Counted from the stretch's first letter, positions 3,655 through 23,294 are shown. The stretch: DNA of 64,000 nucleotides from Candidatus Heimdallarchaeota archaeon (GCA_030149205.1 JASBSB010000004.1:34058-98057), one strand, 5' to 3'. A program made the numbers and translations. Notes: a model not told the origin generated them from the sequence alone.

Positions 3655-3659
3655 TTTAC

Positions 3660-6579: not shown

Positions 6580-6690
6580 TTAAGTTTTTCTCACATTTAA
6601 GATGGGTTCACCCCTCTCCCATCATCACTGGAGAGTCTTTTTATAAGAACGTTCTAACATAATACAAGTACAACAATGAAGCAATACCAA
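6580..6690. repeat. about 105-bp direct repeat, copy 1 (copy 2 at 20239..20347)
   Basis: Near-identical to 20239-20347: TTAAAACCATTTAAGTTTTTCTCACATTTAAGATGGGTTCACCCCTCTCCCATCATCACTGGAGAGTCTTTTTATAAGAACGTTCTAACATA. Contains a CTCTCC-N10-GGAGAG hairpin. The repeat extends into the 3' end of 6641..7183. Confidence 0.7.
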
Positions 6691-7183: not shown

Positions 7184-7184
7184 C

Positions 7185-7448
7185 CTATTTCACCCTATTT
7201 TGTGCATCAGCCCAGAGGTATGTGTTAAGGAAGTGGTACCCAGTCAAAGAGATACCATACAGACACTTTATTGGTCCCATTCCATATGCAGATGGTTTCT
7301 CCTCTATATGTTCCTTTCCTACCTCAATCAGTGATTTTATTAATTTAACTGGACTTATAGAACCACCCAGCTTTGTCAACAAGCTGGGGAAGAGTGTAAC
7401 CGCAGCAAAACTATGAAGGAACACATATCCTTTATTACACCATATCAT
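7185..7448 (-). CDS. small family-related protein with soluble C-terminal domain (degenerate CxHQ N-terminus)
   Basis: 87 aa. The N-terminus MIWCNKGYVFLHSFAA resembles a decayed YVYPCLHQESF. The C-terminus EEKPSAYGMGPIKCLYGISLTGYHFLNTYLWADAQNRVK is reproduced in the truncated ORF 59888..60010. Confidence 0.45.
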   Translation of the reverse strand: MIWCNKGYVFLHSFAAVTLFPSLLTKLGGSISPVKLIKSLIEVGKEHIEEKPSAYGMGPIKCLYGISLTGYHFLNTYLWADAQNRVK

Positions 7449-7523
7449 TTAAATCTATTGTGCATAAAAATTCAGCTCGATAACTTTCAACAGGTAAATA
7501 AACTTATCAGAGAGTATACCAAG

Positions 7524-8000
7524 TTATGATGGGACTTGTTGTACATGAGATGGGGTATTCATCCTAAAATCTCTTGCTCTTATAACCCTTTGAATTAAAT
7601 AGAGAACCAAAATGATTAGGTAATAAGCGTAATTTGAAACAATAAAATTGGAAACATCATCAAGAAAATTCAATGGCTTTCCAGATACAACAAATGGGGT
7701 GTCCTTAAAGGGGTTAAACAGGAGAAAAAGCCCATAAAGAACCAGAAGATTCTGATAGACTATTTTAAAAATTTTCTCTGGTGTCAGCCTTCTAAGCTGA
7801 AGCGGATCCATCTTTCCTGTTGAAATTGAAAAGAAGATTATGATGAGAAGAATCTTTAGCCTGTAAGGAAACGGGACAAACAGATTCCACGTTCCAAACA
7901 AGACCAGAAGTAGCACAAAAACCCTTAATTTGTTAGAGGATGGGGATTGATCATTTTCAAACTCAGCATTGTTAAATGAGAAATCAACAAAAAATAACAC
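7524..8000 (-). CDS. hypothetical membrane protein
   Basis: 158-aa hydrophobic ORF in the same string as the 10521..11930 cassette. Confidence 0.4.
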   Translation of the reverse strand: MLFFVDFSFNNAEFENDQSPSSNKLRVFVLLLVLFGTWNLFVPFPYRLKILLIIIFFSISTGKMDPLQLRRLTPEKIFKIVYQNLLVLYGLFLLFNPFKDTPFVVSGKPLNFLDDVSNFIVSNYAYYLIILVLYLIQRVIRARDFRMNTPSHVQQVPS

Positions 8001-8030
8001 AAAAAGCTGAAATACTGTAAGCTCTATCCC

Positions 8031-8333
8031 TCATCGAAGCCAAAAAGGTGGGAGATTTCCTATATAGAGGAAAATCCAAACAGATTTTTTGGAAAGAACA
8101 TCCATATAAACATGATCATCAACTTCATCCTTCTCTTTCATTATTAAAAATAGTGAAATCAAAAGAGTAAAAAATATAAAGGACCCAAAAATTATTAAAA
8201 TAATGCCAATTGGTCTTAATTCTCCGTAGACTTTCACTGAGAACCAGTGATTTGAAACACCAAAAAAAATATAAATCTGTGTTAAGAGAACTAAAAATTC
8301 TCTGAGCCAAAAAACAATCTCTCTCTTCAACAT
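8031..8333 (-). CDS. hypothetical small membrane protein
   Basis: 100-aa ORF with two TM segments. Confidence 0.35.
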   Translation of the reverse strand: MLKREIVFWLREFLVLLTQIYIFFGVSNHWFSVKVYGELRPIGIILIIFGSFIFFTLLISLFLIMKEKDEVDDHVYMDVLSKKSVWIFLYIGNLPPFWLR

Positions 8334-8788
8334 CTCAATTCACCACCTGTTAGTAATGGATTTAAACACAAATATCTGGAGTAGGTAAAAAATTCCCAAG
8401 AAGACTGAAAGCATTTGTATTGCTCTAATGAACCCTTCATTTGTTGGATCAGTTCCTATCAATACTCGAGTTGTGAGTCCACTTACTCCCATTGCAAAGA
8501 GGCTTAGTATCATTGGTACGGTAAGACCTGTATTGAAAATGTCTGATATGATACTTAGACCTGAAAGTGAGGCTGTTTTCTGTTTCTATTGTTAAAATTG
8601 GTTGATGGACACAGCTATGCATAGAACTATTAACCAACGTTGCCATATATAGTTTTCCCATAACCCTTTAGGGTACTGTTAAAACCATAGAGATCGAATA
8701 CTTCCACAGTGCACAATTTGTTCGAATTAGATGTGACCTCTTCATGCTAGGTAGAGGGGGACTGTAAGACTCCTGCTATTAAACTAAC

Positions 8789-9604
8789 CTACTTTTTACC
8801 TATGCCAAATGGTAACCCAGATGTCATTCTCCCATAAAAATAGATTAACTCACCCAGTAGAAATACCCTTATAAGAAGTTGAAGGAAGTCTGCACTAATT
8901 CTAAGTCCAAACAACAAATTTAAGGGGGAAGGGGTGAAAAATTGACTTGAAACGGGATTCAACACAAGAAAGTAAACCAGAGCAAACTTTACCATCCAAA
9001 CAATCAGCATCAGATATGTGTTAACATCTTTCTTTACCTGTTTCATCCACAAAAACACTGTCAGAGGGATGAAGAATCCCCAAAAAGTTACTAACTGAAA
9101 GAGCCAGACACCTGGGATCAAATAGATCAGGAACAGAAGAACGAGAGACACAGCGGGTAGACGGTATGCTTTAGGGTTACCTTTTTCAAGATAGGTTCTC
9201 ATCAACAGAGCTTTGTTTATTAACAACGGTTGCCAAAACAAGAAGATAATTCCTAAGAAGAATGCTAAAAAGAATGCGTAGAAACCTGAACCTGAGGAGG
9301 TAAAGAATAAAAATGGGATAGCCAAATAGCCTATTTGAAAAACTGCATCAGCGATCCCATTATCTTTGTCTGAATGTTCCTCGTTATCAATATACTCCGT
9401 AAAGAGAACTGGATCATAGCAGCTAATTATTGCAGTTACCCCTGTTAATAAAACAAAACCGCCAACTTGATGACGATTGAGTGAAAAACTGACGGAAAGT
9501 ACGACCAAAAGGTTAAGAGAGAAAAGAATGATAAACTTGATCCAGAGATACAACTGCAAACCTTCTCCCCTTATTTTTCCTTTGACCAAATTTCTTGACT
9601 CCAC
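8789..9604 (-). CDS. hypothetical multi-pass membrane protein
   Basis: 271 aa with about 7 hydrophobic helices. Second gene downstream of long-form 10521..11930. Confidence 0.5.
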   Translation of the reverse strand: MESRNLVKGKIRGEGLQLYLWIKFIILFSLNLLVVLSVSFSLNRHQVGGFVLLTGVTAIISCYDPVLFTEYIDNEEHSDKDNGIADAVFQIGYLAIPFLFFTSSGSGFYAFFLAFFLGIIFLFWQPLLINKALLMRTYLEKGNPKAYRLPAVSLVLLFLIYLIPGVWLFQLVTFWGFFIPLTVFLWMKQVKKDVNTYLMLIVWMVKFALVYFLVLNPVSSQFFTPSPLNLLFGLRISADFLQLLIRVFLLGELIYFYGRMTSGLPFGIGKK

Positions 9605-9703
9605 CGTTATAACTCACCTTCAGAAATTACTCTAGAGGAAAATGTGCCTGCTGGTATATATAGCACTCTAATAAATATTGGATTGATCATATATCTAAAA
9701 TCC

Positions 9704-10528
9704 TTATTTATCCTTACTAGACAAATTTTGAACGATTGAGCTACCGATTAAAAATAAGAATATAAAAACAAAGAGTCTAAATATTAAACTTGACCACATC
9801 ATAATTTGAAAGGGCATATTTTTTGTTCTGTATAGTTGTGAGCTATAGCCAATTAAAAATACGACTGTGATTAAAATGTGTTGGATCAAAGCATTAATTA
9901 TCTCCCAATTGACTCTAGAGATTGATTTTTTGCTTTCACTAATTGGGAAATAGCTATAATCTTTCATTTTATTTATAAAGTCATCAATTGAATTGGAATT
10001 TACTAAAATATAATTTATACCATCCCAAATATAGAGCTTGCTTTTAAAATTTTGACTTAGGGTTGCTTGAAGGTTAAACAAAAATTCTAGCATCAGAAAC
10101 GGTTGTAAAAAGACGGGGAGAGGAATTATCTTCCTTATATACTCATTTTGTGGTGTCGTATAAGTTTTCGAAGGATTATCAATAATCTCTTCTTCAATTA
10201 TTTCAAATATTTCCCTTTTTATTAAGATATTTTTTTTATTTGTAAAATCAACGTGATTGAACTTCTTGGAATAAATTTTTATCCTTGAGACTAAGAATAG
10301 ATATATCGTTGCTTGTATTAATACTTCAGTTAAGACTACAAGTCCTATATAACCCACTTGAGAGGGGAGTCTAGTAAAATCTTCAATAGTTTTTGGACGC
10401 ATAATTTGGTATACAAAAGGATATAACAAATAAATTAAATAATAACGAAGAAAGTAATTTACATTCCCATTATAGAAAATTAATTTTCTGTTGAGAGTGA
10501 GTAATTGTTTGATATTCATCTTAAACAC
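9704..10528 (-). CDS. hypothetical multi-pass membrane protein, cognate partner of 10521..11930
   Basis: 274 aa and hydrophobic. Start overlaps the stop of 10521..11930 by 8 nt. Confidence 0.5.
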   Translation of the reverse strand: MFKMNIKQLLTLNRKLIFYNGNVNYFLRYYLIYLLYPFVYQIMRPKTIEDFTRLPSQVGYIGLVVLTEVLIQATIYLFLVSRIKIYSKKFNHVDFTNKKNILIKREIFEIIEEEIIDNPSKTYTTPQNEYIRKIIPLPVFLQPFLMLEFLFNLQATLSQNFKSKLYIWDGINYILVNSNSIDDFINKMKDYSYFPISESKKSISRVNWEIINALIQHILITVVFLIGYSSQLYRTKNMPFQIMMWSSLIFRLFVFIFLFLIGSSIVQNLSSKDK

Positions 10529-11930
10529 GAACTCTAAATCCTAAGGCATAATTAACTAAGCCAAAGATTATATGGTAGTAAGCATAAAGCATAATAGATT
10601 GACCGTAGGCCATAAATCTTGAGGCTTGATCAGCTTTCGCTCTAGAATCCTTTACTTTTGGAAATGCAAACCTGAATGGTAAGTATCCTGCAATTAAACC
10701 CAAACCTGCTCCAATGAGCAACCCAACGAAGTTGTTATCAGAAAGTGCAGAAAAGTCTAGGTTATAGATCATATTATTTACCTCTTCCCCAACCCTAAAA
10801 ACAAGACTTATAGATGAAGCCCTTTGTGCTACTAAATTTAATATCTTCCACATTAATCCATCTTGTTTTAGAAATGAAACGATTGATTTTGCCAGCTTTA
10901 ACTTTGAATTTTTATCCATATTTTTGGCTAAGTTTTCAAAAATTGTTTTACCAGATCTAATTTGTGTGTTAAGTTTTCCCAATCTTCCATTTCCTGAGTT
11001 ATATTTAATTATTCCATCATCTATAAACTCACTGCGCTTAGTGTGTATTTGTTTTAACAGACTTAACCCCATTATTATATGAAATACGGTATTTATGCCA
11101 GTAACTTGCTGAAACCTCTTTTTATCATCCCAAAATGTAATCAAGGGGGCTATATTTGCAATAAGGTTTACGAGTGTTGCAGCCAACACGGCGAAATTAA
11201 GAGTCCCTACTGTTTCAGGGGTTGGTGGGAAAGGCTTTGCAAAAATCTGAATTGCTAAGTGACCGATCAAATCTACAAGGTGTAATCCCAATGCAGTAGA
11301 TTGTGGGGTGGATAACCCCCCTAATGTTTCAAATTTAAACCCTGATAAAAAGACCGGATCTAGCACACTAAATTTAAAATTTTTTAAATTATCAGAAGAA
11401 ATAATCAGGTAAACCCTATTTACATCAAATTGTACTTCTAAACCTAACAGAATCGAACTTCCCTCTTTGAGTTTATCTCCAGAAACTGTATCATAACTCA
11501 ATTGTGGTATCAATGTTGACATTGTAAAGAAGAATGTTTTGATTATCATTTTTAATAAAATTTGAATTACAGCATTAATTACTAATTTTAATGTATCAAC
11601 TATGTATTGTCCAGCCGCCTTGATCCCGTCGACGAAGCTGGTGACGTCGTTTTTGATGGTCGTTAAATCATCTTGTGTCACGCTGAACACCCCAAAGAAA
11701 AAGTCCACCAGGACCCAGCCGGGGTGCCCAATCAGCCCCATCACCCACAGGTTCTGCTGCCAGCTGCCAGCAACATCAACGCACATCGTGAGTAATCTGT
11801 CATAGACAAAGTCAGCAAACACCTGAGAAATAAAATTTGCTGGGTTCAACAAGTGTGCAATACTGTGCTTAGGCAGGATGAGTAAGGTCTCATAAGAGGT
11901 CTGGTGCATACAGGTTGCTGATCTATTCAT
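10521..11930 (-). CDS. CxHQ-family hypervariable protein, long form (unique 350-aa C-terminal module)
   Basis: 469 aa. The N-terminal 110 aa (MNRSATCMHQTSYETLLILPKHSIAHLLNPANF...MCVDVAGSWQQNLW...DVTSFVDGIKAAGQYI) matches 4041..4979 closely, including at DNA level. The C-terminus is unrelated to the other members. Own TATA promoter at 11961-11978. Confidence 0.65.
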   Translation of the reverse strand: MNRSATCMHQTSYETLLILPKHSIAHLLNPANFISQVFADFVYDRLLTMCVDVAGSWQQNLWVMGLIGHPGWVLVDFFFGVFSVTQDDLTTIKNDVTSFVDGIKAAGQYIVDTLKLVINAVIQILLKMIIKTFFFTMSTLIPQLSYDTVSGDKLKEGSSILLGLEVQFDVNRVYLIISSDNLKNFKFSVLDPVFLSGFKFETLGGLSTPQSTALGLHLVDLIGHLAIQIFAKPFPPTPETVGTLNFAVLAATLVNLIANIAPLITFWDDKKRFQQVTGINTVFHIIMGLSLLKQIHTKRSEFIDDGIIKYNSGNGRLGKLNTQIRSGKTIFENLAKNMDKNSKLKLAKSIVSFLKQDGLMWKILNLVAQRASSISLVFRVGEEVNNMIYNLDFSALSDNNFVGLLIGAGLGLIAGYLPFRFAFPKVKDSRAKADQASRFMAYGQSIMLYAYYHIIFGLVNYALGFRVRV

Positions 11931-11959
11931 AAGGAAAAGTACAAAACCATTAAGGCTTC

Positions 11960-11980
11960 CCTTTATTTAAATTTATCCTA
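11960..11980 (-). promoter_or_regulatory. archaeal TATA/BRE-like promoter of 10521..11930
   Basis: Coding-strand GGATAAATTTAAATAAAGGGAAGCC lies about 30 nt upstream of the ATG and is paralogous to 5008-5030. Confidence 0.5.
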
Positions 11981-12615
11981 CAGAAAGTGATCGGTAGAAC
12001 AGAACATTCTTTGTGGAGAGATTTCCACAGAATTCCTCTACAATCAACATCCCTCGTCACCCCCTTAAGCTCCACCGTGCACGCCAGCACTCCGCGTGTT
12101 CACTCTCCTCCCCACTGCTTAGCTTTTCTATCTGTCTGTAGTATCTTTTGTTTATGAGCTGCTTCAGATAATTCAGTACAAGTTAGAAGAATATTCCTAG
12201 TGAAGTAGTTAATTCTAATATCGCGATAAATTGAAAGATCTCAAGCTTTGAGTTAGCAACAATTAACAAAACTATTGTGATAAACGCCAAAAGAGAGGCT
12301 TCGCTTAAACTTAAAATCTTCTCATATTCTATATTTGATACAAACTGATATTCCTCTATGTACCCATTGTATTCCATGTTTGAGAGATAAAAATCAAAAG
12401 TTCTCGGATAAATGATAAAAAACATGAAATGACTAAGTGTTATAAAGACAATAGTAAAGACAAAAAAACCTGAGGTAAGCGTTTAATTTAGATAAAGCAT
12501 CAATTCAGATACCAATAACCCAGAGAGAAGGGAAGCATCAGCAAAAATGAAAACAATGGACTCAATGTGGAGGTAAGTACACATTAATTATTCAAGCTGA
12601 CCCGCAAACTGCTTC

Positions 12616-13176
12616 TTATTCCTCTCCTTTCTGATTTCTGTTTTTTCTGATTTCTGTTCCAACAGTTGACGCAAAGGCCACGAAGATAAAATCAAACAAG
12701 ATATAAGGTGAAAAAACATACCTGATCCCAGAAAATGATAGAACATAAAATGGTGGATCTGAAACAGATGGGCTATAAGTTATACTAGGTGGCTTTCCTA
12801 AAACATTGATGAGAAAGCCAGTCAAGAGTGCTACCAGCAGTGGAATTGATAACAGCAGTGGTCTAACGACTACAACATAGATTACTCCCTCAAATTCATC
12901 ATGGGATTTCCAAAAAGAATATTTTTTCCTCAGCATCAGGCGAAAAGACCAGAGACGGTCATCTATATCAGGGTAAATAAATCCCATAATAACTGAGAAA
13001 AACAAAAAATAAATCATAAAATACCAGAAATATAACCACTGATAAATCGGTATACCAATTAAAATAATTCCGATCACGGTCAAAAGTAGCCTGTATTTTC
13101 GCAAGTTAAATCCAGCTTTTCTGGCAAATAATTGCCTCAGATTTATTTTAGAACACACGTCTTGAACTCGAAACAC
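12616..13176 (-). CDS. hypothetical membrane protein, partner of 13205..13708
   Basis: 186 aa and hydrophobic. Lies 28 nt downstream of the short-form gene on the same strand. Confidence 0.45.
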   Translation of the reverse strand: MFRVQDVCSKINLRQLFARKAGFNLRKYRLLLTVIGIILIGIPIYQWLYFWYFMIYFLFFSVIMGFIYPDIDDRLWSFRLMLRKKYSFWKSHDEFEGVIYVVVVRPLLLSIPLLVALLTGFLINVLGKPPSITYSPSVSDPPFYVLSFSGIRYVFSPYILFDFIFVAFASTVGTEIRKNRNQKGEE

Positions 13177-13204
13177 CCCAGACGCTGATCAACGCTATAA
13201 GGTT

Positions 13205-13708
13205 TTACAAAAATAATGAGATGTAGTAATACCCAAATTTTATTTTCTCTATAGCTGATTCCTTGATATAATATTGCTGTTTCTTGGTATTTATATCTTG
13301 ATAGGCTTTATTTTGTTCATTGACTAGATCTACTGCATTTTTATATTCCACATTTCTATAAGCTAATCCATCTTTGCCCAAATGACTAAACCGATATTCC
13401 TTCACCCTTTTATTAATTTCATTAAGGCCTTTTTCCATCTTAGATATTTGGTTTTGGTCGTTTTGAAGCATCAGTTTAGGAAGGCGAAGTGCGAAAAAGT
13501 TCACCAGTATAGATTTTATACCTCTGGCAATTGGCAGGAGTATATTGTTTGTGGTGAACTCCCCGACAGCCTTTATCCCGACGACGGTGACGCCGTCCTT
13601 GATGGTCTGCTGGTTGATAGACCTGACAATGAAGTCGCTGGGTATTCCAATTTCAAAGGATTCCTGATGAAGGCAAGCATACACATATCTGATATACATT
13701 AAAACCAT
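13205..13708 (-). CDS. CxHQ-family hypervariable protein, short form (type-D, soluble coiled-coil-like C-terminus)
   Basis: 167 aa. MVLMYIRYVYACLHQESFEIGIPSDFIVRSINQQTIKDGVTVVGIKAVGEF, then a unique lysine/glutamate-rich C-terminus. Junction DNA motif at 13581-13609. Confidence 0.6.
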   Translation of the reverse strand: MVLMYIRYVYACLHQESFEIGIPSDFIVRSINQQTIKDGVTVVGIKAVGEFTTNNILLPIARGIKSILVNFFALRLPKLMLQNDQNQISKMEKGLNEINKRVKEYRFSHLGKDGLAYRNVEYKNAVDLVNEQNKAYQDINTKKQQYYIKESAIEKIKFGYYYISLFL

Positions 13709-13846
13709 TTAAGTTTATCGCACAAAAATCATGTACGTAATCTTGCCCTCTCATGAAAATTAATGATGGACCCCTTAGTTTACCATATCTTTGCTCCTTG
13801 GATTCTGTTTAATCTTCAATCAGTTTCACGGAATAGGTTAACACAT

Positions 13847-14614
13847 CTATGTCTCTATAGGAGAGCTATTCTTGTCAAGAGGAAAGTCAATTTTAAGCGT
13901 AAACAAATCAATTAAAACTAAATTAAGTAACACCCATGTCTTCGCAACCACATGGCCATTTACCAATGGAATTGAGTTTGTGATGCTTTCAAAAAATGTG
14001 AAGAGTAGCAAATTTCCAAGATAGTTGAGTGTCAGAAAACCAAGGATACCTAATTTCCAAATCGTAAAGTCAGTCAATGCTATATTCTTGATCATATTTA
14101 CAAAGTATAACACCATAATCAGAAACATCCCTAAAATTCTTTGAAGAATCCAGTCACCAGCAAAGAAACTCAAAAAATACAATGAGACTATGGTGATTAC
14201 CCTAAAAAAGTAGAAACCAATACTATTTTTCTCAAGGGTCTTGGGAGATATTATAAATTTAAACTTAAATTTCGGGTCATCTGAATTGGAATCTGTGAAA
14301 AACATGAGATATAATACCAGTAACATGAAAATTAAGTCTCTACTTACTATACTACTGATCAGTATTAGCACACCTATGACATAAAAACCCTGGTAGTTTT
14401 CCTTGGGGTCAGGCTCAATTATCCCTCGAAGTGATATCCGACTAATTATTTTGGAAATAACAAGCAAGATCACCATTCCTCCAAGGAGACCGAAACCTTC
14501 CCAACTTGAAAATGTTACATTATTAAGGAGCTGAAAGTAAAGCACTATTGGAAACAGCAGTACCATTATCTGCCTCAGAACAAAATTTACAATAGGGATG
14601 GGTTTTCGTTTCAT
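13847..14614 (-). CDS. NFxLRQ-family multi-pass membrane protein (immunity-like partner)
   Basis: 255 aa. Homologous to 20652..21431, 61845..62657 and partial 1..269 (NFVLRQIMVLLFPIVLYFQL..SWEGFGLLGGM). Start overlaps the stop of 14611..14922 by 4 nt. Confidence 0.55.
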   Translation of the reverse strand: MKRKPIPIVNFVLRQIMVLLFPIVLYFQLLNNVTFSSWEGFGLLGGMVILLVISKIISRISLRGIIEPDPKENYQGFYVIGVLILISSIVSRDLIFMLLVLYLMFFTDSNSDDPKFKFKFIISPKTLEKNSIGFYFFRVITIVSLYFLSFFAGDWILQRILGMFLIMVLYFVNMIKNIALTDFTIWKLGILGFLTLNYLGNLLLFTFFESITNSIPLVNGHVVAKTWVLLNLVLIDLFTLKIDFPLDKNSSPIET

Positions 14615-14922
14615 ATTCTAACTCCGTCGACGAAGCTGGTGACGCCCCTTTTGATCTCTGTGAGTGCCTTGTCTGTCAAACTCCACAGTTGGTTCACCGC
14701 ATCCACCAGGGTCCAGGTGGGATGCCCGATCAGCCCCATCACAGTTTTCCACAGGTTCTGCTGCCAGCTACCTGTCACATCAACGCACATTATAATCAAC
14801 CTGCTAATTGTGTGACTATCAAAGACCTGTAAAAGTGTAGATTTCATCATGTCTTCACCAATGTAGTTAGAGGATGAAAGCCTCAGATGAGGGTGATGTT
14901 GACAACTAGTTATTTCGTCCAT
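14611..14922 (-). CDS. CxHQ-family long-form N-terminal stub (truncated right after the junction motif)
   Basis: 103 aa. MDEITSCQHH...MCVDVTGSWQQNLW...GVTSFVDGVRI, then a stop immediately after the conserved junction. No C-terminal module, yet still coupled to an NFxLRQ partner gene. Confidence 0.5.
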   Translation of the reverse strand: MDEITSCQHHPHLRLSSSNYIGEDMMKSTLLQVFDSHTISRLIIMCVDVTGSWQQNLWKTVMGLIGHPTWTLVDAVNQLWSLTDKALTEIKRGVTSFVDGVRI

Positions 14923-14952
14923 AGGTAATGGTACAAGAAAACTAAGATTTAC

Positions 14953-14972
14953 AGCTTAATAAATTTATCCTA
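14953..14972 (-). promoter_or_regulatory. archaeal TATA-like promoter of 14611..14922
   Basis: Coding-strand GGATAAATTTATTAAG lies about 30 nt upstream of the ATG and is paralogous to the other long-form promoters. Confidence 0.45.
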
Positions 14973-15363
14973 CCAAAGGTAGCAGCTGGATTGGGTTGTT
15001 GATACAATGTTTCAGAGAAAACTCCTTGAGGAGGATTCTTCACTAAAAAATAATTCTGTGGTTAAGGAGGTCCTCAATTATATGAATAATAGAATTACTA
15101 TCCGGGGTCGACTCCATTTACCAATATCTGCTAACGTTATCATAAAATTTTGATGAGAGAGCTATATCAAAGAATATTGTAAAACCTTAAGCTCTTCTCT
15201 AGTTGTATATTTTATCTATATATATTATAAATTATCAACATTACGAATTGACACTTGCTCATAGATTAGATTCATCCTTATAATTTGAATTATACTCGTT
15301 AGCTTTTGCTTGGGTAAAAGAATTAAATACGCAGGAGCTAACCTTTGTATTTATACCTCAATT

Positions 15364-16215
15364 CTAGTCCTGTCTTGTGTATAAAGTGAATATTACAAGA
15401 AGGAAAGTGGTGGCCCAGATTGTAACAAGACTGAAAGTGTGGAAATTAAAGGAAACTCCACTGAGAAAAAAATAAATTAAAAAGATAAGACTCCAGTATA
15501 AAATCAAGATGTATTCTGCCAATAGGAATAGCCATAAAAAGAGTCCAGGGTACTTTAAAAGTATTTCTACCAATGGATTAGCAAGCAGCAGTATAAGTAA
15601 GGTGGGAGTTTCGTGTGCAAATGGATTATTAACCACTTTCGGATCAACTGTTTTGCGGAGGGCAAGCATGCTTCTTCCCATAAGTATCAGGCTCAGAAAA
15701 TAAACAGAGAAAAATACAAAAGCGGTGATAATTGTGATATACCATTCTGGACTGAGGAGGATGAGCATCAGAAAAGCAGAAAACAAAAGTGTTGATTCTT
15801 CAAATATCTGTGACTTGTTGATATAATTTTCGGCTTTTGCTCTAATCTTTATAGAAACATAGGTTAAGAACAACCAAGACAGGTATGATATGACCGCAAA
15901 AGATAATTGATAACCACCAACATCAGATAAAGCACCTTTCCTAAGCAGAAACATTGTGTTAATCAGGAGCAAAATCCATCTTACCCCCCGATTTTTCAGT
16001 TTTCCTCTTAGATTTATATTTCCAAAAACCTTGTAAATCCAAAAATAGGTAAGGATCATTGCAGTTCCTAATAGAATTTGTGAGATTACACCTGTAATGT
16101 AATTCTCAGATAAGATATACAGAAGAAGCAATCCAAATGTGGAAATTGAGACCTTGTGTACCCTCGTCTCAGTCAAGAGTGCAAAAAATTTCACATCCCA
16201 TTTTCTTTCATTCAA
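15364..16215 (-). CDS. hypothetical multi-pass membrane protein (orphan partner-type gene)
   Basis: 283 aa with about 8 TM helices. No family toxin-like gene lies immediately upstream. Confidence 0.45.
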   Translation of the reverse strand: MNERKWDVKFFALLTETRVHKVSISTFGLLLLYILSENYITGVISQILLGTAMILTYFWIYKVFGNINLRGKLKNRGVRWILLLINTMFLLRKGALSDVGGYQLSFAVISYLSWLFLTYVSIKIRAKAENYINKSQIFEESTLLFSAFLMLILLSPEWYITIITAFVFFSVYFLSLILMGRSMLALRKTVDPKVVNNPFAHETPTLLILLLANPLVEILLKYPGLFLWLFLLAEYILILYWSLIFLIYFFLSGVSFNFHTFSLVTIWATTFLLVIFTLYTRQD

Positions 16216-16315
16216 ATATTCATGATATATTATATCCCAGTCTTCTCTTTCTGATTTGATCCCATTGGAATCGGAACTGGATAATGAGGGTTGTTTGTTT
16301 ATCCTACATCATCTC

Positions 16316-16564
16316 CTACATCAATGAGTATATTAAGAACTTCCCAAAATAATATCCAAGCTGTACAAGTAGTAACTCATAAATGGGAACGGAAATTGAT
16401 TTGATCTCATCAACTTTTTCTAAATCCTTTAGTATTATAAAAGTATTCCTACCTTTTATATTTTCTATAAATTCATTTTTTACTGGATGAGAGATATACC
16501 TTCCTTTACCTTTTTTCTCAAACAATGACCTTATTGCGATTTGATCTTTCATCATTTTAATCAA
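16316..16564 (-). CDS. hypothetical small protein
   Basis: 82-aa ORF with no motifs. Weak. Confidence 0.2.
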   Translation of the reverse strand: MIKMMKDQIAIRSLFEKKGKGRYISHPVKNEFIENIKGRNTFIILKDLEKVDEIKSISVPIYELLLVQLGYYFGKFLIYSLM

Positions 16565-16602
16565 ATCACCTATATAATAAAGAGAAGAGGTTCTTACATT
16601 CT

Positions 16603-17178
16603 TTAGAATTGAAAAACGATGGATGCTAAATTTATCACCAGAAATGAGGTAAAATAAATGTAAACCAGAATTTCTGAAAAATGACCTCTGTTAGAGACTT
16701 TAGATTGTTTCTCTTTATCCTGAATGAGCCCATTATCAGCTCCCCTTTTAGATGAGATTCTTGAGAGAACAAATTCTAACAAAAGGTAAAGAATTACTGT
16801 TGTGACTTCCACGACACCAAGAAAAATCAACTGCTTAGCTATAAGATCAAATAAGACTCCACTCCTTGAGTAGAAATAGATTATAATAAAAGGGGTCATT
16901 AATAAAATAACTATCAATGATCCAAGATATATTGTCCTTTCTAACTCAGATCTTAGTGTTTTTGTCTTGTAATAGATCATTTTTAGTGAAAATGGTAATA
17001 TTGAAAGATTCAGACCAACCAAAAAAAACAACAAGCTTATAGAATAAAAGACCATGTTGAAAGTCGAAAGTACGAAGAATAGTGCCGAAAAGAAGTACAG
17101 AAAGAGGTTTGCTTTCAATAAGAGTTCAAGTGTCTTTTCTGAATATGAGGGGTTACATTCTTTTATTAAAAATTTCAT
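16603..17178 (-). CDS. hypothetical membrane protein, partner of 17203..17460
   Basis: 191 aa and hydrophobic. Lies 24 nt downstream of the short-form gene. Confidence 0.45.
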   Translation of the reverse strand: MKFLIKECNPSYSEKTLELLLKANLFLYFFSALFFVLSTFNMVFYSISLLFFLVGLNLSILPFSLKMIYYKTKTLRSELERTIYLGSLIVILLMTPFIIIYFYSRSGVLFDLIAKQLIFLGVVEVTTVILYLLLEFVLSRISSKRGADNGLIQDKEKQSKVSNRGHFSEILVYIYFTSFLVINLASIVFQF

Positions 17179-17202
17179 TGTATTTACCTCAGAGTTTAAA
17201 AT

Positions 17203-17460
17203 TCACAACTGTAGCACCTGTGTTGTAAGGGTGAGGAAAATCATTTCCGGTATTTTCACAATAATGGTATGAACTCCTTCCCCTATGGGTCTGATGATAT
17301 TGTTGGAATTGAACTCACCAGCGTATTTCACCCGCTCGTTAAAGTTGGTGATACAGTCCTTGATGGTCTGCCGAAATACATCTGTCATTGAAAAACGAGT
17401 GAATGATCCAGCATCAAATGAATCCTGATGGAAACAGATGTACACATATCTATCATCCAT
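17203..17460 (-). CDS. CxHQ-family hypervariable protein, short form (type-E, 85 aa)
   Basis: MDDRYVYICFHQDSFDAGSF...QTIKDCITNFNERVKYAGEF. Junction DNA motif at 17348-17370. Confidence 0.5.
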   Translation of the reverse strand: MDDRYVYICFHQDSFDAGSFTRFSMTDVFRQTIKDCITNFNERVKYAGEFNSNNIIRPIGEGVHTIIVKIPEMIFLTLTTQVLQL

Positions 17461-17972
17461 TAATCTTATTTAAGTTTATTTCCCAAATTTTAGTTATTAG
17501 AAATTCTAAATCTTTGTGTGGTTTTATTTTTTGTTTAAGTTTGAGTACTTCATAACCTTTTGCCATTGCAGGGAATAAAAAGCTCAACCAATGACCAGAG
17601 ATGCAAACACCAAGAAATCCAGCAATTACCAGATCATTTCGGGGAGGAAAGCCAAACCTAATCTACCACTGCTGCTATACCCGCTTTCAACAAATTCTGT
17701 AGTGTTTGCGGTGTTGTTTTTATGATAGGAAATGACTATTTGTTAGTGGGTCTGGGAACTGTTTTTTATATTAGTTACCTTGTCACAGGGATCTGTGATG
17801 ATCTTTCAGGAAATTTCCGCATCCATTGACCTTCACTACATTTAACTACAATGTTTCATCAAGTTTTTTCTCTTTTAGTTAGGAAATGCAGTTTAGCTTG
17901 ATTAATATAATTTTATTCGGATCACTAACCTAGTAAAGCCTAAAAAGACAACAATGTGTTGTAAGCTAGTCT

Positions 17973-18452
17973 TCATTGAGCGACTTCAATATTGACGCCA
18001 AATATTTCTATTATGTCATCCGAAATTTGAGTTGCCAAATCCAATAGCACTTCTGAATCTCGATCTTGAAAGATACTTGCTTTATTCTCGTTCAACTCAG
18101 CAATAAGATCATAATAATCTAAATTTTGCTCAATAATAAATTTTTTAATCTTATCTATTGAAAGAATGTTCTTTGGTGATTCAGAGTTAAAGATCGATTT
18201 TTCTGGAATATTGATTATTATTTTCATTCCAGTTGATAAACAAACGGGTAGAATTATCAGGATAATGAACACCCCAATGATCTCAACATTCAAAAGGATA
18301 GGATTGATTGAAGGCACGAATAATAGAACATAGATATTTGCAAGGATACTTATTAAAACGAAAAAGAAAAATATTTGAATGCTGTTTTTTCTGCAATTCC
18401 GAGCAGAAAAATAAATGATTTTTTGGTCTTTTCTATTTCTTCCTAACACCAT
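17973..18452 (-). CDS. hypothetical membrane protein, partner of 18476..19048
   Basis: 159 aa with 2-3 TM helices. Lies 23 nt downstream of the family gene. Confidence 0.4.
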   Translation of the reverse strand: MVLGRNRKDQKIIYFSARNCRKNSIQIFFFFVLISILANIYVLLFVPSINPILLNVEIIGVFIILIILPVCLSTGMKIIINIPEKSIFNSESPKNILSIDKIKKFIIEQNLDYYDLIAELNENKASIFQDRDSEVLLDLATQISDDIIEIFGVNIEVAQ

Positions 18453-18475
18453 AAATTTCTCCTCACTTATTAACC

Positions 18476-19048
18476 CTAGTAAAATACAAGTACCAGGAGT
18501 ATCCTATATGCTTTTGGTTCCCAACTCATCCGAGCATTTAACATTAACAACGTTGCAATAGCTCCCATAGATATAGTCCAAGTACCTCCAAGCAGTAATG
18601 TATGTTCAAATACAACTTGGTTTATGTCTAAGGTTTCATAAATTAAATCTGTGGATGAAATCAATGGACTTTTAATTATAAATACATTATTATTTACGTT
18701 AAATTGTATGCCTTTGATTACTCCTTGTACATCAATGGTTAAAACTAGAGTATTTTGCTTTTTAACACAAATAAAATTGTTCAAAAGTTCAACAACATTT
18801 CCATCTAACATTGAAATTGTTTTGAAAATAGCAAAAAGCATTGTTTTTACAGTTATTGCTATAAATTGATGAATTACCTCAAGGACTGCATTCATAATAT
18901 AACTACCGGCTGCTTTCACCCCATCGACGAAGCTGGTGACGCTGCTCCTAATACTCTGAAAGTTACTATACATGGTAATTGAGTGCTTTTCAGTTTCGAA
19001 ATCAAATGACAGCTGATGGAGACAGCAGTACACAGAAGTAATATCCAA
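18476..19048 (-). CDS. CxHQ-family hypervariable protein, short form (type-F)
   Basis: The track ORF 18476..19297 has a spurious 5' extension. The family-type start is ATG at 19046-19048 (MKSLDITSVYCCLHQLSF...SSVTSFVDGVKAAGSYIM), preceded by the AAACTTTATATG element. The C-terminus is unique. Confidence 0.55.
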   Translation of the reverse strand: MDITSVYCCLHQLSFDFETEKHSITMYSNFQSIRSSVTSFVDGVKAAGSYIMNAVLEVIHQFIAITVKTMLFAIFKTISMLDGNVVELLNNFICVKKQNTLVLTIDVQGVIKGIQFNVNNNVFIIKSPLISSTDLIYETLDINQVVFEHTLLLGGTWTISMGAIATLLMLNARMSWEPKAYRILLVLVFY

Positions 19049-19088
19049 TGATTTCATATAAAGTTTCCTCATTCCAGTTGAAGTATGA

Positions 19089-19856
19089 CTAATGACTCTT
19101 TCTATCACTAGAAAATACAAATTCGTTGGTGGTTGATGACCCTTCATCATTTTTAGAAGGTGAGTGATTGACATCCTCTGAAGCATTTGAATGTTGAATT
19201 GAGAACTGAAATGGGTAACTTCGTAAGATAGGAACTCCATTAATCTCAGAGTTAAAAAATGGCTCAGCGAGGATTTTAAGCAAAAGTAGTAATGCAAACA
19301 ACATGATTGTGAGTATCAAAAGTGTGTTCGTTGTAAGATAGACACTTAATTTTTCATTTTGCATCCTCCATCCAGAAGAGAGTAATAGAGATAAAAGCAT
19401 ATAAATTCCGGATAACAAAGAAGAGACATATAACCCCTGTCTCTTCTCCAAGTTGGATCGCAAATTGGTTTTAACTTTAATTACCTTGTAGATGACACCA
19501 GTTCCGATAAGGAACGGACAAAATATTGCAAGATAAACAGTGTAAATATTTATCCATTCTGCATAGGTACTAAAAAGCAGAAATTCGAATGGATAAAGCA
19601 GGAACAACAACAAAACGCTGATCTTTAGCAGTATTTGGTCTGGTAGCTCGATGAGTGTATAGAAAACATAGAAATTAGAAAAGTTAGATAATCCCCACCA
19701 CATTAGAATGAGAATGCCCTGTAAAGTTAGAGCTACTATCCCTTGGTGCCTTACTGCATAAAATAATTCCCAAGTCAAGCTGTATACGAAAACCACAGTT
19801 AGAGCAGACAGTGTTAGGACAATGTTCTGTTTGTAATATTTAAGAAACGCTTTCAT
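19089..19856 (-). CDS. hypothetical multi-pass membrane protein, partner of 19867..20238
   Basis: 255 aa with about 7 TM helices. Lies 10 nt downstream of the short-form gene. Confidence 0.5.
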   Translation of the reverse strand: MKAFLKYYKQNIVLTLSALTVVFVYSLTWELFYAVRHQGIVALTLQGILILMWWGLSNFSNFYVFYTLIELPDQILLKISVLLLFLLYPFEFLLFSTYAEWINIYTVYLAIFCPFLIGTGVIYKVIKVKTNLRSNLEKRQGLYVSSLLSGIYMLLSLLLSSGWRMQNEKLSVYLTTNTLLILTIMLFALLLLLKILAEPFFNSEINGVPILRSYPFQFSIQHSNASEDVNHSPSKNDEGSSTTNEFVFSSDRKSH

Positions 19857-19866
19857 GAATACACCT

Positions 19867-20238
19867 TTAAAATGATTGGTTGTCTATCATCGCATACATC
19901 ACTGCTAAAACAACATGGTAAAATGTGTAAAACATCATGTATGTATTAGACTGAATCAAGATATTCCCTGAGGAATCCACAGTCACACTTACTGAAATTA
20001 TTGTTTCAACAATCTGTAACAGGCCAAGTATTGCTGAGCGATACACATTCATCATTTCTTCTGCAATAGGCAGGGGTGTATTGTTGGCTATGACCTCCCC
20101 AGCAGCCTTGATCCCGTCGACGGTGACGTCTCCCCTGATGGTCTGCAGGGCTGTGAAAGTGAAGCTACTGTGTGTTCCAGTTTCATAGGATTCCTGATGA
20201 AGGCAAGGGTACACATACCTGATATACATTAAAACCAT
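19867..20238 (-). CDS. CxHQ-family hypervariable protein, short form (type-B C-terminal module)
   Basis: 123 aa. MVLMYIRYVYPCLHQESYETGTHS...QTIRGDVTVDGIKAAGEV...PIAEEMMNVYRSAILGLLQIVETIISVSVTVDSSGNILIQSNT. The 3' part is about 98% identical at DNA level to the partial plus-strand copy at 63850-63960. Confidence 0.6.
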   Translation of the reverse strand: MVLMYIRYVYPCLHQESYETGTHSSFTFTALQTIRGDVTVDGIKAAGEVIANNTPLPIAEEMMNVYRSAILGLLQIVETIISVSVTVDSSGNILIQSNTYMMFYTFYHVVLAVMYAMIDNQSF

Positions 20239-20347
20239 TTAAGTTTTTCTCACATTTAAGATAGGTTCACCCCTCTCCCATCATCACTGGAGAGTCTTTT
20301 TATAAAAATGTTCTAACATAGTGCAAGTAGAACAATGTTTAGGTGAA
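20239..20347. repeat. about 105-bp direct repeat, copy 2 (copy 1 at 6580..6690), including a remnant 3' end of a 6641..7183-type gene
   Basis: Near-identical to 6580-6690. Its distal part retains the last about 45 nt of a 6641..7183-like ORF, but no such gene follows. Confidence 0.65.
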
Positions 20348-20651: not shown

Positions 20652-21431
20652 TTACACAGCTGAGACAACTTTTATTTTGCAAAATGAACAAATCTTGACT
20701 GTGAGCCAGTCAAGATACGCAGCAAAAACCAATATTCCAGCCTTAGAAACTACAAATACTACTAAAACACCTGATCCTCTGTCCGAGATGAAATTTTGTC
20801 CCAGAAATGCCAGTGCTATTAAGTTTTCAACAAAAATTAATGCTATAACACCATAAGCGATTAAGTCCCAACTTCCCAAATCAGATAACAGTTTATCCTG
20901 AAAAATGTTAACAAAAAATAGGAGAATAAACAGAAGCAATGCAGTTATCTTTACTGTATCCCATTCATTGTCTAGGAAACTCAAAACAAAAAGAGAAATT
21001 AAGATAATCAATCGAGCAAAAAACAACCTATATTTTCTTACCTCAAATTTTTTCGATTCAGAGTTAAACACCTTTCTAAGCACAGGATCATCAGAAAAAA
21101 TATCTGAGGCAATTATGGCATAGATAGCTAGTATCATCAAAAATAAATTTCTACTAATTATTACACCCAAAAACCCTAGAATTGAATAGCTGTAATATAC
21201 CAAATAGTCTTTATCTCTTTCAGTAATTTTATGGAGAAGTATTCGACTAATTGTTTTAGAAATTATTACTAAGATCATCATTCCTCCTAGGATACCAAAC
21301 CCCTCCCAGCTTAGGAAAGAGACCCTGTTTTGGAGTTGAATGTAAAGCATTATTGGAAACAGCAACATAATTACTTGTCGCAGAAAAAAATTCGTTAGAC
21401 GCAAATTTTCTGGTTCCATAATATCACACAA
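20652..21431 (-). CDS. NFxLRQ-family multi-pass membrane protein (immunity-like partner of 21424..23268)
   Basis: 259 aa. Homologous to 13847..14614 and 61845..62657. Start overlaps the stop of 21424..23268 by 8 nt. Confidence 0.55.
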   Translation of the reverse strand: MCDIMEPENLRLTNFFLRQVIMLLFPIMLYIQLQNRVSFLSWEGFGILGGMMILVIISKTISRILLHKITERDKDYLVYYSYSILGFLGVIISRNLFLMILAIYAIIASDIFSDDPVLRKVFNSESKKFEVRKYRLFFARLIILISLFVLSFLDNEWDTVKITALLLFILLFFVNIFQDKLLSDLGSWDLIAYGVIALIFVENLIALAFLGQNFISDRGSGVLVVFVVSKAGILVFAAYLDWLTVKICSFCKIKVVSAV

Positions 21432-23268
21432 CTGATGAAAACAGTTTTAGCACCTCTTTGAATATAAAAAACAAAAAGGGTAAAACCACAAGAGAGTACC
21501 CTTTTTTGCTAAAGAAGGTTGCTGCTGCCTGAGGGTCTCCTTTTCCAAATTTATCCAGCACTGCATAGCTGACGATCTCTCCACTTGCTACGCCTGCGAG
21601 CCAGAAGTACATCGTTGGTGTCAGGGGATTATCAATCACATTGTCCTTAAAATCGTTGTAGCTCGAGATGAAAATATATAAGAGTTTAGCTAAACTCGTC
21701 TTAGCTGTTAATTTGTTCTCTTTTGCGAACTCTTCTAAGACCTTTTTGAATCCATTTTTACCCTCCTTGACTATCGTTTTGACTGCCTTTCCAGCATTAT
21801 ACACTGTATATGAGAATGGTAAAACAAAGATCAGCGCAGAAAGCCATCCAACCATAAGTTTGTCGAATTCATCAAGGTCTTCCTTTGTCCATGGGTTAAG
21901 GTTTACGTCAGCAAAGAGATACCTGTTCCTCTCTCTGAATATATTTATGAAAGTCAGTAATAGTACGGCTTGTGATGCAATAAAGAGCCCTAGGGACGTA
22001 AGGGTGGCACCCAAGGGGCCCAACACAGGTACAGCCCCATTGGTCTTTTGTGATAACGCACTGGCAATATAGGCTGCATTAAGCAGAGAGAGCCCTATCC
22101 CCTGTGCCCAAACAAGGGAATCAGCACTTGACCCAGCGGGAGAAAGGGTCTCACTGCCGATGATCAGCTCTAAAATGGTCTGGAATAGATCAACTGTGGT
22201 TGTTTTGCCCCCAACCACCATTTTCATTGTTGATACACCAACAAGCTCTATGGTTATATCTAACACCTTGTTATCGATGTATGAGGTGAGACGGAGGCCA
22301 TTTGGGATTAGCACGGTGTTATATCCGGGAGAGGTCTCACCAAGTGTTAAAAACAACGCATTAACGACATTTCGAAAGATAGAGATCAGACCCTCCATTA
22401 TAGGCTTAATCACCTTGTTGACGAAGAACTCTCCGGCGAATTTCACCCCATCGACGAAGCTGGTGACGCCGTCCTTGATGGTCTGCAGGGCTGTGGTACT
22501 CATTGTCCAAAGCTCACTGACAAAGTCCACCAGGGTCGCCCCAGGCTTCCCAATGATGCTCATCACAGTGTTCCACAGGTTCTGCTGCCAGCTCCCCGCA
22601 ACATCGATGTAGGTGTCATAGATGTGGTCAGCAAAGACCAGGATGGCAACCTTGGCGACAGCCACATAGTCCAGGCCTGTATTGGGGTCATACCTCAGAT
22701 TGTTTGGATGGTCAAGGTTCAGCTCAGTGATCAAGGCGTCGTCCTTCAGGATCACGTTTGCCAGCCGGTTCTGCTGGGGCTCCTCCTTGTACCAGTTGAT
22801 GATGCGCTCCACTGAGCCAAAGCCATAGTCGTTGATCTTGCCCCAGACGAAGTCAAAGAGCTTGTACTCCCTGTAGATGACCACATTTCCAATCTTGATG
22901 TCATAGCCAAGCCAGCTGTTCAGGATGCTCTTGGTGTTGGCCCTCAGGCTGTTGAAGTCCTGCACCACCTTCTCCAGCAGCAGAGAGACATCAAAGACCC
23001 GGTCCTTGGTGGGTTGTGTCTCACTGGCAGTCTTCATGGAGGCACGCGCAGTTGGTGGCACCTGTGCCGCCTGCTTCTCATTGTCCGGGCTCCAGCTGAA
23101 GCCTGTCCCCTTGATCAGGGCTGTCAGCACCGAGTGGTTGGCAGCCAACTGGTGACGTGGGGCAAACTCAAGGGTTTCCTGATGTTTTAGGATTTGAGCT
23201 CTGTATCGATTTAACCCGAGCTCAAAGGGTGTAGAATTGCCGCATTGAACTCTGTATCTTTGATGCAT
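21424..23268 (-). CDS. CxHQ-family protein, full-length archetype (GC-rich 230-aa N-terminal extension + conserved core + type-A C-terminal module)
   Basis: 614 aa. Its N-terminus (RYRVQCG..FELG and ILKHQETLEF..HQLAANHS) contains degenerate versions of both the short-form and the long-form N-terminal motifs. The core IDVAGSWQQNLW...GKPGATLVDFVSELWTMSTTALQTIKDGVTSFVDGVKFAGEF is DNA-identical in stretches to 4041..4979. The C-terminal 330 aa is paralogous to 273..1400 and 60719..61834. 22600-23268 is about 55% GC against about 33% background. Confidence 0.65.
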   Translation of the reverse strand: MHQRYRVQCGNSTPFELGLNRYRAQILKHQETLEFAPRHQLAANHSVLTALIKGTGFSWSPDNEKQAAQVPPTARASMKTASETQPTKDRVFDVSLLLEKVVQDFNSLRANTKSILNSWLGYDIKIGNVVIYREYKLFDFVWGKINDYGFGSVERIINWYKEEPQQNRLANVILKDDALITELNLDHPNNLRYDPNTGLDYVAVAKVAILVFADHIYDTYIDVAGSWQQNLWNTVMSIIGKPGATLVDFVSELWTMSTTALQTIKDGVTSFVDGVKFAGEFFVNKVIKPIMEGLISIFRNVVNALFLTLGETSPGYNTVLIPNGLRLTSYIDNKVLDITIELVGVSTMKMVVGGKTTTVDLFQTILELIIGSETLSPAGSSADSLVWAQGIGLSLLNAAYIASALSQKTNGAVPVLGPLGATLTSLGLFIASQAVLLLTFINIFRERNRYLFADVNLNPWTKEDLDEFDKLMVGWLSALIFVLPFSYTVYNAGKAVKTIVKEGKNGFKKVLEEFAKENKLTAKTSLAKLLYIFISSYNDFKDNVIDNPLTPTMYFWLAGVASGEIVSYAVLDKFGKGDPQAAATFFSKKGYSLVVLPFLFFIFKEVLKLFSSVV

Positions 23269-23294
23269 GGACAGATACTATAAAATAAAGACTG

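Follow-up and report, generated by a model that had tools for sequence, protein, structure and literature searches.

Introduction

Bacterial polymorphic toxin loci, among which CdiA-CT/CdiI, Rhs-CT/RhsI and the Neisseria MafB-CT/MafI systems provide the classical orphan arrays, deploy toxins with unrelated folds, and an orphan immunity gene accompanied by a remnant of its toxin gene is a well-known component of such loci. Pore-forming colicins and CdiA-CT(EC93) are examples of pore-forming or membrane-depolarising bacteriocins and effectors that are matched by integral-membrane immunity proteins. In the T6SS (type VI secretion) clusters of Vibrio cholerae, arrays of orphan immunity genes are reported to be left behind by effector displacement (PMC5361080). 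Among archaea, the VARTIG loci of Thermococcales code for a large secreted immunoglobulin (Ig)-domain protein (arCOG07710) of unknown function with a recombining hypervariable C-terminal Ig domain, followed downstream by small, mostly membrane proteins (PMC8416519). Here, we describe a comparable locus in 64,000 nucleotides of DNA from a Candidatus Heimdallarchaeota archaeon (GCA_030149205.1 JASBSB010000004.1:34058-98057; hereafter, the window), centered on a cassette in which a 103-amino-acid (aa) stub open reading frame (ORF) is joined directly to the gene for an intact membrane protein. The balance of evidence tips modestly towards this pair being the decayed remains of a long-form cassette, belonging to a polymorphic family of archaea that is uncharacterised, in which the variable module was deleted while the partner was kept as an orphan immunity-like protein.

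The array occupies the first 23.3 kb or so of the window and comprises no fewer than 10 cassettes, all on the minus strand. Each cassette consists, in order, of an element resembling an archaeal B recognition element and TATA box (BRE/TATA-like), a Cys-containing leader, a conserved core, a short junction, a C-terminal module (CT) that is hydrophobic and varies between cassettes, and at least one membrane-protein gene. The conserved region, short junction motif, variable CT and cognate downstream gene are as in the CdiA, Rhs and MafB loci, as are the tandem 5'-truncated cassettes that keep part of the conserved region and the signs of recombination and mosaicism at the junction. The abrupt switch from conserved to variable sequence at a conserved junction, typical of polymorphic toxins, is apparent from the alignments, from a repeated junction 20-mer and from a mosaic pair of relatives (P0005 and P0002), and the tandem 5'-truncated array is seen in the window and on the contigs L003, L004 and L086. 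A secretion signal with a large extracellular region is present in relatives (a 955-aa ORF on L004, and P0006) and absent from the longest form in the window, a 614-aa ORF.

Several features set the locus apart. The host is archaeal, the hydrophobic CTs seemingly share one scaffold, the partners are polytopic membrane proteins and the core is strongly GC-enriched. Moreover, whereas classical orphans usually lack initiation signals, a promoter-like element, a start codon and a Cys leader are present in each individual cassette here. No match to the FHA, RHS, VENN, PT-TG or MafB domains was found in the window proteins or their relatives. Thus, in comparison with contact-dependent inhibition (CDI) loci, the FHA-type repeats, the VENN motif or its equivalent and the CdiB Omp85 transporter are lacking, and, in comparison with Rhs/YD proteins, there is no RHS match and the junction reads VTSFVDG rather than the PxxxxDPxGL that ends the Rhs core. 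The likeness to pore-forming colicins and CdiA-CT(EC93), namely a hydrophobic helical CT with a polytopic partner immediately downstream and often translationally linked to it, is architectural only, as no similarity of sequence or fold was detected. As regards integrons and shufflons, which have a dedicated tyrosine recombinase next to the array and cassettes bounded by recombination sites (inverted ones in shufflons), the cassettes here all lie in direct orientation, no integrase was found among the window ORFs of at least 100 aa submitted to Pfam and NCBIfam, and a conserved tyrosine integrase is located just downstream of the locus on L004 and L087. The retention of a gene in the immunity position after loss or replacement of an effector is common to the stub cassette and the V. 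cholerae T6SS orphans (PMC5361080); the difference is that an internal deletion here fused the conserved 5' part to the start of the partner, and that no delivery machinery was identified. With VARTIG, the locus has in common an archaeal layout like that of polymorphic toxin systems, with a hypervariable C-terminus followed by small membrane proteins. It differs in that there is no Ig-domain match, LamG domains being found in relatives only, in that a membrane module of several helices, rather than an Ig domain, makes up the variable part, and in that the recombination substrates, the orphan cassettes, reside in the same genome.

The stub ORF and its fusion to an intact partner gene

The stub ORF (14611..14922, minus strand) codes for 103 aa between an ATG start and a TGA stop. 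Its protein begins MDEITSCQHH, has the C-terminal sequence MCVDVTGSWQQNLWKTVMGLIGHPTWTLVDAVNQLWSLTDKALTEIKRGVTSFVDGVRI and finishes with the tail EIKRGVTSFVDGVRI (...GVTSFVDGVRI*) right before the TGA. A first-pass annotation of this DNA had described it as the N-terminal domain of the long form alone, stopping after GVTSFVDGVRI, and was accurate in both coordinates and description. Only one frame is open across this region, and it is that of the stub. The leader portion (14791-14922, MDEITSC...) is diverged, with a GC content of 37% and compensated frameshifts relative to its paralogues, and the core portion (14611-14790) is conserved, with 54% GC overall and 70% at third codon positions (GC3). 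After ...VDG, the stub has just three codons (V-R-I). The junction proper is a 20-mer, GTCACCAGCTTCGTCGACGG (14624..14643, minus strand), which codes for VTSFVDG and marks the point at which homology between the cassettes stops. With Y admitted at one position, it is found in five exact copies in the window against an expectation of zero, and its synonymous sites are identical between the copies although the adjoining sequence shows a synonymous divergence (dS) of at least 0.6.

The partner gene (13847..14614, minus strand) is an intact ORF for a 255-aa protein with 7-8 transmembrane (TM) helices (approximately 7 by hydropathy and 8 by AF2, whose model, with a pLDDT of 48, is unusable), an N-terminus reading MKRKPIPIVNFVLRQ and the NFVLRQ version of the NFxLRQ motif that typifies its family. 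The annotation had also proposed that the stop of the stub overlaps the start of this full-length membrane gene, and this is borne out by an ATGA at 14614-14611, in which the TGA of the stub overlaps the ATG of the partner. The wider fusion point (14611..14625, minus strand; GAC GGA GTT AGA ATA TGA AAC) includes a Shine-Dalgarno-like GGAG at 14625-14622, 8 nt ahead of the partner ATG, and a relic TAG at 14620-14618 that lies in the partner's frame two codons ahead of its ATG (TAG-AAT-ATG). The fusion point, GGAGTTAGAATATGAAA, resembles GCGGTGTAGATTATGAAA, the sequence in the cassette of P0001 at which the CT ends and the partner begins (GCG GTG TAG ATT ATG AAA), and the relic TAG matches the layout of CT stop and partner start in intact cassettes. 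The overlap and the GGAG together would suit translational coupling from the stub to its partner.

Loss of the C-terminal module

All-against-all comparison and profile-profile comparison (probability 95.9%, E 5.5e-9) group six genes into the NFxLRQ family: the partner of the stub, the partner of the 614-aa 'main' gene, P0004, the gene at 61845-62657, and two genes on L003 (4439-5182 and 5840-6550). The upstream context was read for five of the six, that of P0004 being left out. In four of these five, the NFxLRQ gene directly follows a CT of the type that we term class A, or its 3' remnant, namely the CTs of the main gene, of P0001 (273-1400 in the window) and of the cassette at 60719-61834, and a 124-aa remnant on L003; the partner of the stub is the sole exception. 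CTs of other classes are followed by unrelated membrane proteins, such that the downstream gene co-varies with the type of CT, and each class-A CT in the window has a partner of its own. The stub's partner is thus a homologue of an immunity-position gene without an adjacent cognate CT, preceded by the stub only. Because NFxLRQ partners elsewhere follow class-A CTs, the module lost from the stub cassette was a class-A CT of about 340 aa.

An alternative raised by the annotation itself is that the stop is a sequencing error, beyond which the ORF would continue into a full CT. This was rejected: tblastn with five CT modules against 12000-16500 (E < 0.05) detected no CT-like coding sequence around the stub in any frame, and, since there are no bases between the junction and the partner, a sequencing error cannot account for the structure; no choice of frame restores a CT. 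The broader possibility that the locus is an artefact, with a false stop or a chimeric join of junction to partner, draws on the repeat-rich nature of the region, where the contigs of an independent assembly from short reads are interrupted by the repeats. However, the fusion sequence is unique and has only about 4-5 nt in common with either parent context, which is too little for a mis-join, the partner's own TAG-AAT-ATG context is preserved, and no frame between junction and partner codes for a CT, so that we regard an artefact as vanishingly unlikely.

A mirror image of the stub is found on L003, where a 124-aa 3' remnant of a class-A CT (5460-5834), devoid of leader, core and junction, precedes an intact partner (5840-6550). 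Other cassettes of the same array have CTs truncated to 85-167 aa. Thus, decay with retention of the partner is common in this array.

The state of the partner bears on whether the pair is pure pseudogene debris, in which neither gene would be functional, the partner would be open by recency or chance and the ATGA would have no role. Many of the neighboring cassettes are visibly degraded, the stub leader has its compensated frameshifts, the TATA-like element upstream of the stub carries two mismatches and the stub is missing from protein databases, all of which would fit such debris. Nevertheless, the chance survival of a 255-aa ORF in AT-rich DNA is unlikely. The partner is 39% identical to that of the main gene (E 4e-46) and exactly as long, both being 255 aa provided that the latter begins at the ATG at 21419; the ratio of nonsynonymous to synonymous divergence (dN/dS) between the two is approximately 0.33 for the whole gene and 0.22 for codons 1-65, with dS saturated. 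In addition, the genome has retained an intact paralogue with 77% identity (P0004), which lies outside the window on the same 271-kb contig. These values suggest a signature of purifying selection on the partner. The stub core is likewise still open and conserved at the protein level, with dN/dS of 0.25-0.48 and dS of 0.6-1.2 against its paralogues; as its dS is at least 0.6 against all copies, it is an old copy, the most diverged one, rather than a recent duplicate. We therefore consider it unlikely that the pair is debris throughout.

The same conservation could be taken to mean that the stub has a function of its own, either as a freestanding core-domain protein (a regulator, a decoy or an adaptor) or as a maintained 'empty socket' of core, junction and immunity gene on which CT modules could land. 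The open core with its dN/dS of 0.25-0.48, the core segment IGHPTWTLVDAVNQLWS, in which the stub is nearer to the distant homologue P0002 than the cores of its paralogues are, the conservation of the junction 20-mer at the DNA level and a second junction-terminated stub in another metagenome-assembled genome (MAG) are in line with this. Set against them, a pairwise dN/dS cannot isolate the period after truncation, the junction is modeled by AF2 as a low-confidence linker with the core belonging to a larger helical domain that the stub does not have, the stub on L086 precedes a remnant of a CT tail rather than an intact partner, and a protein database search with the stub found no paralogous stub. 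A function of the stub itself is hence very improbable.

A promoter-like element and a possible course of decay

Alignment with the regions upstream of the long-form cassettes at 4041-4979 and 10521-11930 places the BRE/TATA-like element of the stub cassette at 14957..14969 (minus strand; GATAAATTTATTA), 34 nt upstream of the stub ATG, a spacing also seen in the other long-form cassettes. The cassette consensus of this element, GATAAAYTTAWAT, has 10 occurrences against 1.5 expected, all just 5' of cassettes, and fits the archaeal BRE and TATA consensus, pointing to a probable promoter role for elements of this type. The copy of the stub departs from the consensus by two mismatches. The annotation had held that the C-terminal module was lost with partner and promoter both retained; the loss, the partner and the 5' region stand, with the qualification that the element is imperfect.

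For the decayed cassette, we envisage the following course. An intact cassette would have had the GC-rich core up to the VTSFVDG junction, then a membrane-embedded CT of 300-370 aa and then the cognate polytopic membrane protein. A deletion could have removed the class-A CT almost exactly from the junction to the last codons or own stop of the CT, perhaps mediated by microhomology, as the endpoints share GG-GT(G), and a later loss of 1 nt would have moved the stop onto the ATG of the partner, creating the ATGA overlap. What would be left over are the promoter-like element, the start codon, the 103-aa leader-plus-core ORF and the intact NFxLRQ partner. The main role left to the stub would most likely be that of an upstream ORF, by which transcription of the partner is maintained and ribosomes are passed on to it by termination-reinitiation, with the GGAG helping, and the partner, if it stays expressed, may act as an orphan immunity-like protein against the class-A module of relatives.

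Whether the stub could regain a module by recombination, as the annotation had suggested from the retained junction, is a matter of speculation; it is plausible in principle, given the gene conversion and junction mosaicism apparent elsewhere in the family. Weighing against it, no other copy of the core is as diverged as that of the stub (dS of at least 0.6), and the partner would be lost if the stub cassette underwent a simple crossover with a neighbor in direct repeat.

Relatives of the family and recombination at the junction

A word-index search yielded two relatives of the main gene (P0001, which is the window gene, and P0002, from an organism in an ENA/JGI metagenome), two of the partner and none of the stub. 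An exhaustive phmmer search with P0002 extended the family to 43 representatives. No relatives were found in GTDB representative genomes or in viral contigs, and two contigs with relatives were found in JGI metagenomes. Some relatives are giants: P0006 (2661 aa, with a signal-like N-terminus and LamG domains), P0015 and P0007 feature the same core and then a variable hydrophobic CT. Many others, of 300-470 aa, begin inside the core and are thus cassettes of the orphan type. On L004, a full-length 955-aa gene with a signal peptide, starting MKKRYKIALLSILLITMMIIG, is followed by an 85-aa membrane protein and then by an orphan cassette in which 130 aa of the core recur before the sequences diverge. 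The array layout with 5'-truncated cassettes recurs on both L004 and L086.

Three observations bear on exchange and decay in the family. First, the CTs of P0005 and P0002 are about 91% identical, yet in the stretch of 21 residues immediately upstream of the junction the two differ at approximately 17, which indicates a recombination mosaic at this point. Second, within the window, the cassette at 4041-4979 has a core like that of the main gene (97% DNA identity, dS 0.16) and a leader like that of 10521-11930 (89%), a mixed similarity that indicates gene conversion between the cassettes. Third, a second stub, P0044 (67 aa), inside contig JAJRTV010000403.1 of another, unrelated archaeal MAG, ends ...GEFVDGNM*, two residues past the junction, with a CT-tail-like ORF after it. 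From the mosaic, the truncations and P0044, the junction is a recurrent boundary for exchange as well as decay.

As regards mobile elements, homologous tyrosine integrases, with a conserved neighboring gene of 220-235 aa, are convergently oriented just downstream of the locus in two organisms (L004, 11217-12158; L087, 18725-19606), and a fragment is found on L088 (4728-5126). None was detected in the window among the ORFs of at least 100 aa submitted to Pfam and NCBIfam. The adjacency may mean that the locus is associated with a mobile element or that the integrase takes part in the turnover of cassettes.

Predicted structure and function of the module and partner

Searches of Pfam, NCBIfam, PADLOC, PHROGs and PDB sequences with the stub, its partner, the main gene, the other partners and a 38-member family returned nothing reliable. 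The only two matches, both weak, to phage tape-measure models (10521-11930, aa 74-132, PHROG 19158, E 1.7e-4; 21424-23268, aa 255-292, Pfam Tape_meas_lam_C, E 0.071) are, for the junction region, probably noise from helical composition. The AF2 model of the 614-aa protein (38-sequence alignment, pLDDT 61) has confident islands only: the helical core at 95-250 is confident, the junction at 253-272 is of low confidence, and the post-junction region at 285-365 features a confident long helix and a five-strand sheet, followed by TM-like helices. A Foldseek comparison with the PDB yielded nothing at E < 0.05. An 'ETL' motif after the sheet recurs across the CTs of the family, and the CTs look like divergent versions of one membrane-active scaffold.

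Such a CT with a polytopic partner could fit a membrane-targeting toxin with a membrane immunity protein, and could equally fit an allele-specific pair for membrane recognition. In the latter case, akin to the recognition logic of IdsD/IdsE in Proteus, the locus would be a variable membrane-anchored surface or kin-recognition system, with the CT as an allele-specific membrane domain and the partner as the protein that binds or assembles it. The stub cassette would still be a deletion derivative, and the retained partner an orphan component for recognition or assembly. Consistent with this are the single predicted scaffold of all the CTs, their membrane-embedded nature without an enzymatic toxin domain, the fact that all partners are polytopic membrane proteins and the adhesion-type LamG domains of the giant relatives. 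Membrane-depolarising toxins with membrane immunity proteins would, however, look identical by sequence. Moreover, as is familiar from the CdiA, Rhs and MafB systems, it is in toxin/immunity loci that one most typically meets arrays of 5'-truncated cassettes, each with a small downstream membrane gene, together with partners that have been orphaned. On the side of recognition, VARTIG shows that hypervariable surface modules of unknown function, with a layout like that of polymorphic toxin systems, exist in archaea (PMC8416519). On the architecture, namely the orphan arrays and orphaned partners, we lean towards toxin/immunity, and we rate recognition, including a recognition or assembly role for the orphaned partner, as rather unlikely.

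Returning to the decayed cassette with an orphan immunity-like partner, a number of observations weigh against it. With respect to its provenance, a full-length gene at the same position was not found in another strain, the only independent assembly (Logan, same sample) breaks at the cassette repeats and does not span the stub, and the stub was not found in NCBI-derived protein sets, whereas its partner is present. With respect to its expression, the TATA-like element is degraded by two mismatches. With respect to its function, no component matches a known toxin, immunity, trafficking or defense family or a solved fold, the CTs seem to share one scaffold (long helix, five-strand sheet, 'ETL' and TM helices), and the 64-kb window has no full-length gene with a signal peptide, the 614-aa ORF being 5'-truncated relative to P0002.

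Organization of the array and its host

The window has a GC content of 36% overall and encodes archaeal markers, namely a Lrs14/Sta1-type regulator, an archaeal-type TldD, RadA (Rad51 family) and a PAC2 proteasome chaperone. As its RadA is at most 49% identical to that of any GTDB species representative, the host is a deep-branching, poorly sampled archaeon. The array continues past position 1 of the window on the Logan contig L003, which matches window 4707..1 at 100% identity and extends it by 2.1 kb containing more cassettes.

The cassettes fall into three classes of core length, with the end of the core and the junction reading ...TIKDGVTSFVDG. The extra-long core is found in the main ORF (21424-23268, minus strand), which comprises a leader, a conserved part of 230 aa, the junction and a class-A CT. 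With its BRE/TATA-like element (23300-23312, minus strand) and NFFLRQ partner (20652-21419/21431, minus strand), it makes up the intact reference cassette (20652..23312, minus strand). The rest of the array (1..20320, minus strand) has membrane-protein genes after each cassette and several truncated CTs. Long cores (about 100 aa) are found in three cassettes, the stub and those at 10521-11930 and 4041-4979 (minus strand), and short cores (about 35 aa) in six, at 19867-20238, 18476-19297, 17203-17460, 13205-13708, 6145-6579 and 273-1400 (minus strand). A second array lies on the plus strand at the right end of the window (60708..64000). In it, a class-A cassette of the short form (60719-61834) has an NFFLRQ partner (61845-62657); two more small membrane genes are present, and another cassette begins at about 63689.

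Among the associated genes, the one at 60012-60539 (plus strand) is paralogous (34% identity) to that at 6641-7183, each just upstream of a short-form cassette. Two cassette-associated membrane proteins (2497-3654 and 5291-6148, minus strand) have C-terminal soluble parts, with a sub-threshold LRR_8 match (E 8e-4) in the former. At the head of the array, a divergent ORF for 300 aa (23407-24309, plus strand; 50% GC) includes a tandem repeat (24117-24231; 27 nt in 4.3 copies, coding for VGLEKVVDA repeats); it has no family or PDB match, and its assignment as a PD-(D/E)xK or Rpn-like nuclease received no support from any search. An 11-nt tandem repeat, TACCAAACATC, with about 10 copies (54238-54352, plus strand), lies in or overlaps the ORFs 54141-54428 and 54208-54531 and is unrelated to the stub.

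A homologous leader with an invariant Cys (..RYVYPCLHQxSFE.. or ..CMHQTSYE..) opens all cassettes whatever the length of their core, the cassette starts being at 1400, 4979, 6579, 11930, 13708, 14922, 17460, 20238 and 23268 on the minus strand and 60719 and ~63701 on the plus strand. Over short segments only, this Cys aligns with an internal Cys of full-length relatives (..YITICHEWQSNPFDD.. in P0002 and ..WQYVCSNPSITDE.. in P0006). Orphans of other organisms also begin M..C(H/E)..: MICHD, MKKICHD, MCTHC and MEECS. It may be that an internal start lies at the leader Cys, or that processing takes place there.

The core has a GC content of 49-54% across the window cassettes, with GC3 of about 70% in the two cores measured (stub and main) against about 38% in the stub's partner. 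For the window core, the values obtained were 54% GC and 72% GC3, compared with 36% GC for the genome. The core is enriched in comparison with its own CTs as well as with the genome. In relatives, the GC3 of the core is 47% against 27-29% on L004 and 34% against 18% on L086, whereas L087, which is single-copy, shows a weak effect. This enrichment could stem from GC-biased gene conversion among the repeated cores or from a foreign origin.

A more far-reaching interpretation of these features is that of an undescribed archaeal cassette system with self-contained, promoter-bearing orphans, the Cys, matched by an internal Cys of the giant LamG surface proteins, as a site of autoprocessing or attachment and the GC-rich core, with 20-mers invariant at the DNA level, as a dedicated recombination substrate. 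The orphans, starting a few residues before the invariant Cys, could then encode the mature fragment directly, and the pair of stub and partner would be a maintained 'empty socket' or an immunity-only module rather than debris. We hold this to be distinctly unlikely.

Significance

The stub and its partner form an orphan immunity-like cassette, which is a real but ordinary product of decay in a polymorphic family of archaea not described so far. Debris of the orphan-immunity type, well known from bacteria, is here found in an archaeal family that is uncharacterised. There is little new biology in the stub as such, since loci of this kind can be expected to leave such remnants. It marks the exact start of the exchangeable module and points to a candidate immunity gene without its cognate module. 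The locus as a whole, with its promoter-bearing orphans opened by a Cys leader, its GC-rich recombination core and the adjacency to integrases in relatives, is of more interest than the stub. Archaeal polymorphic toxin-like and self/non-self systems are almost entirely uncharacterised, and this locus offers an internally controlled example of one, in which the junction as a boundary for exchange and decay, the pairing of CT class with partner family and an orphaned partner can be observed together.

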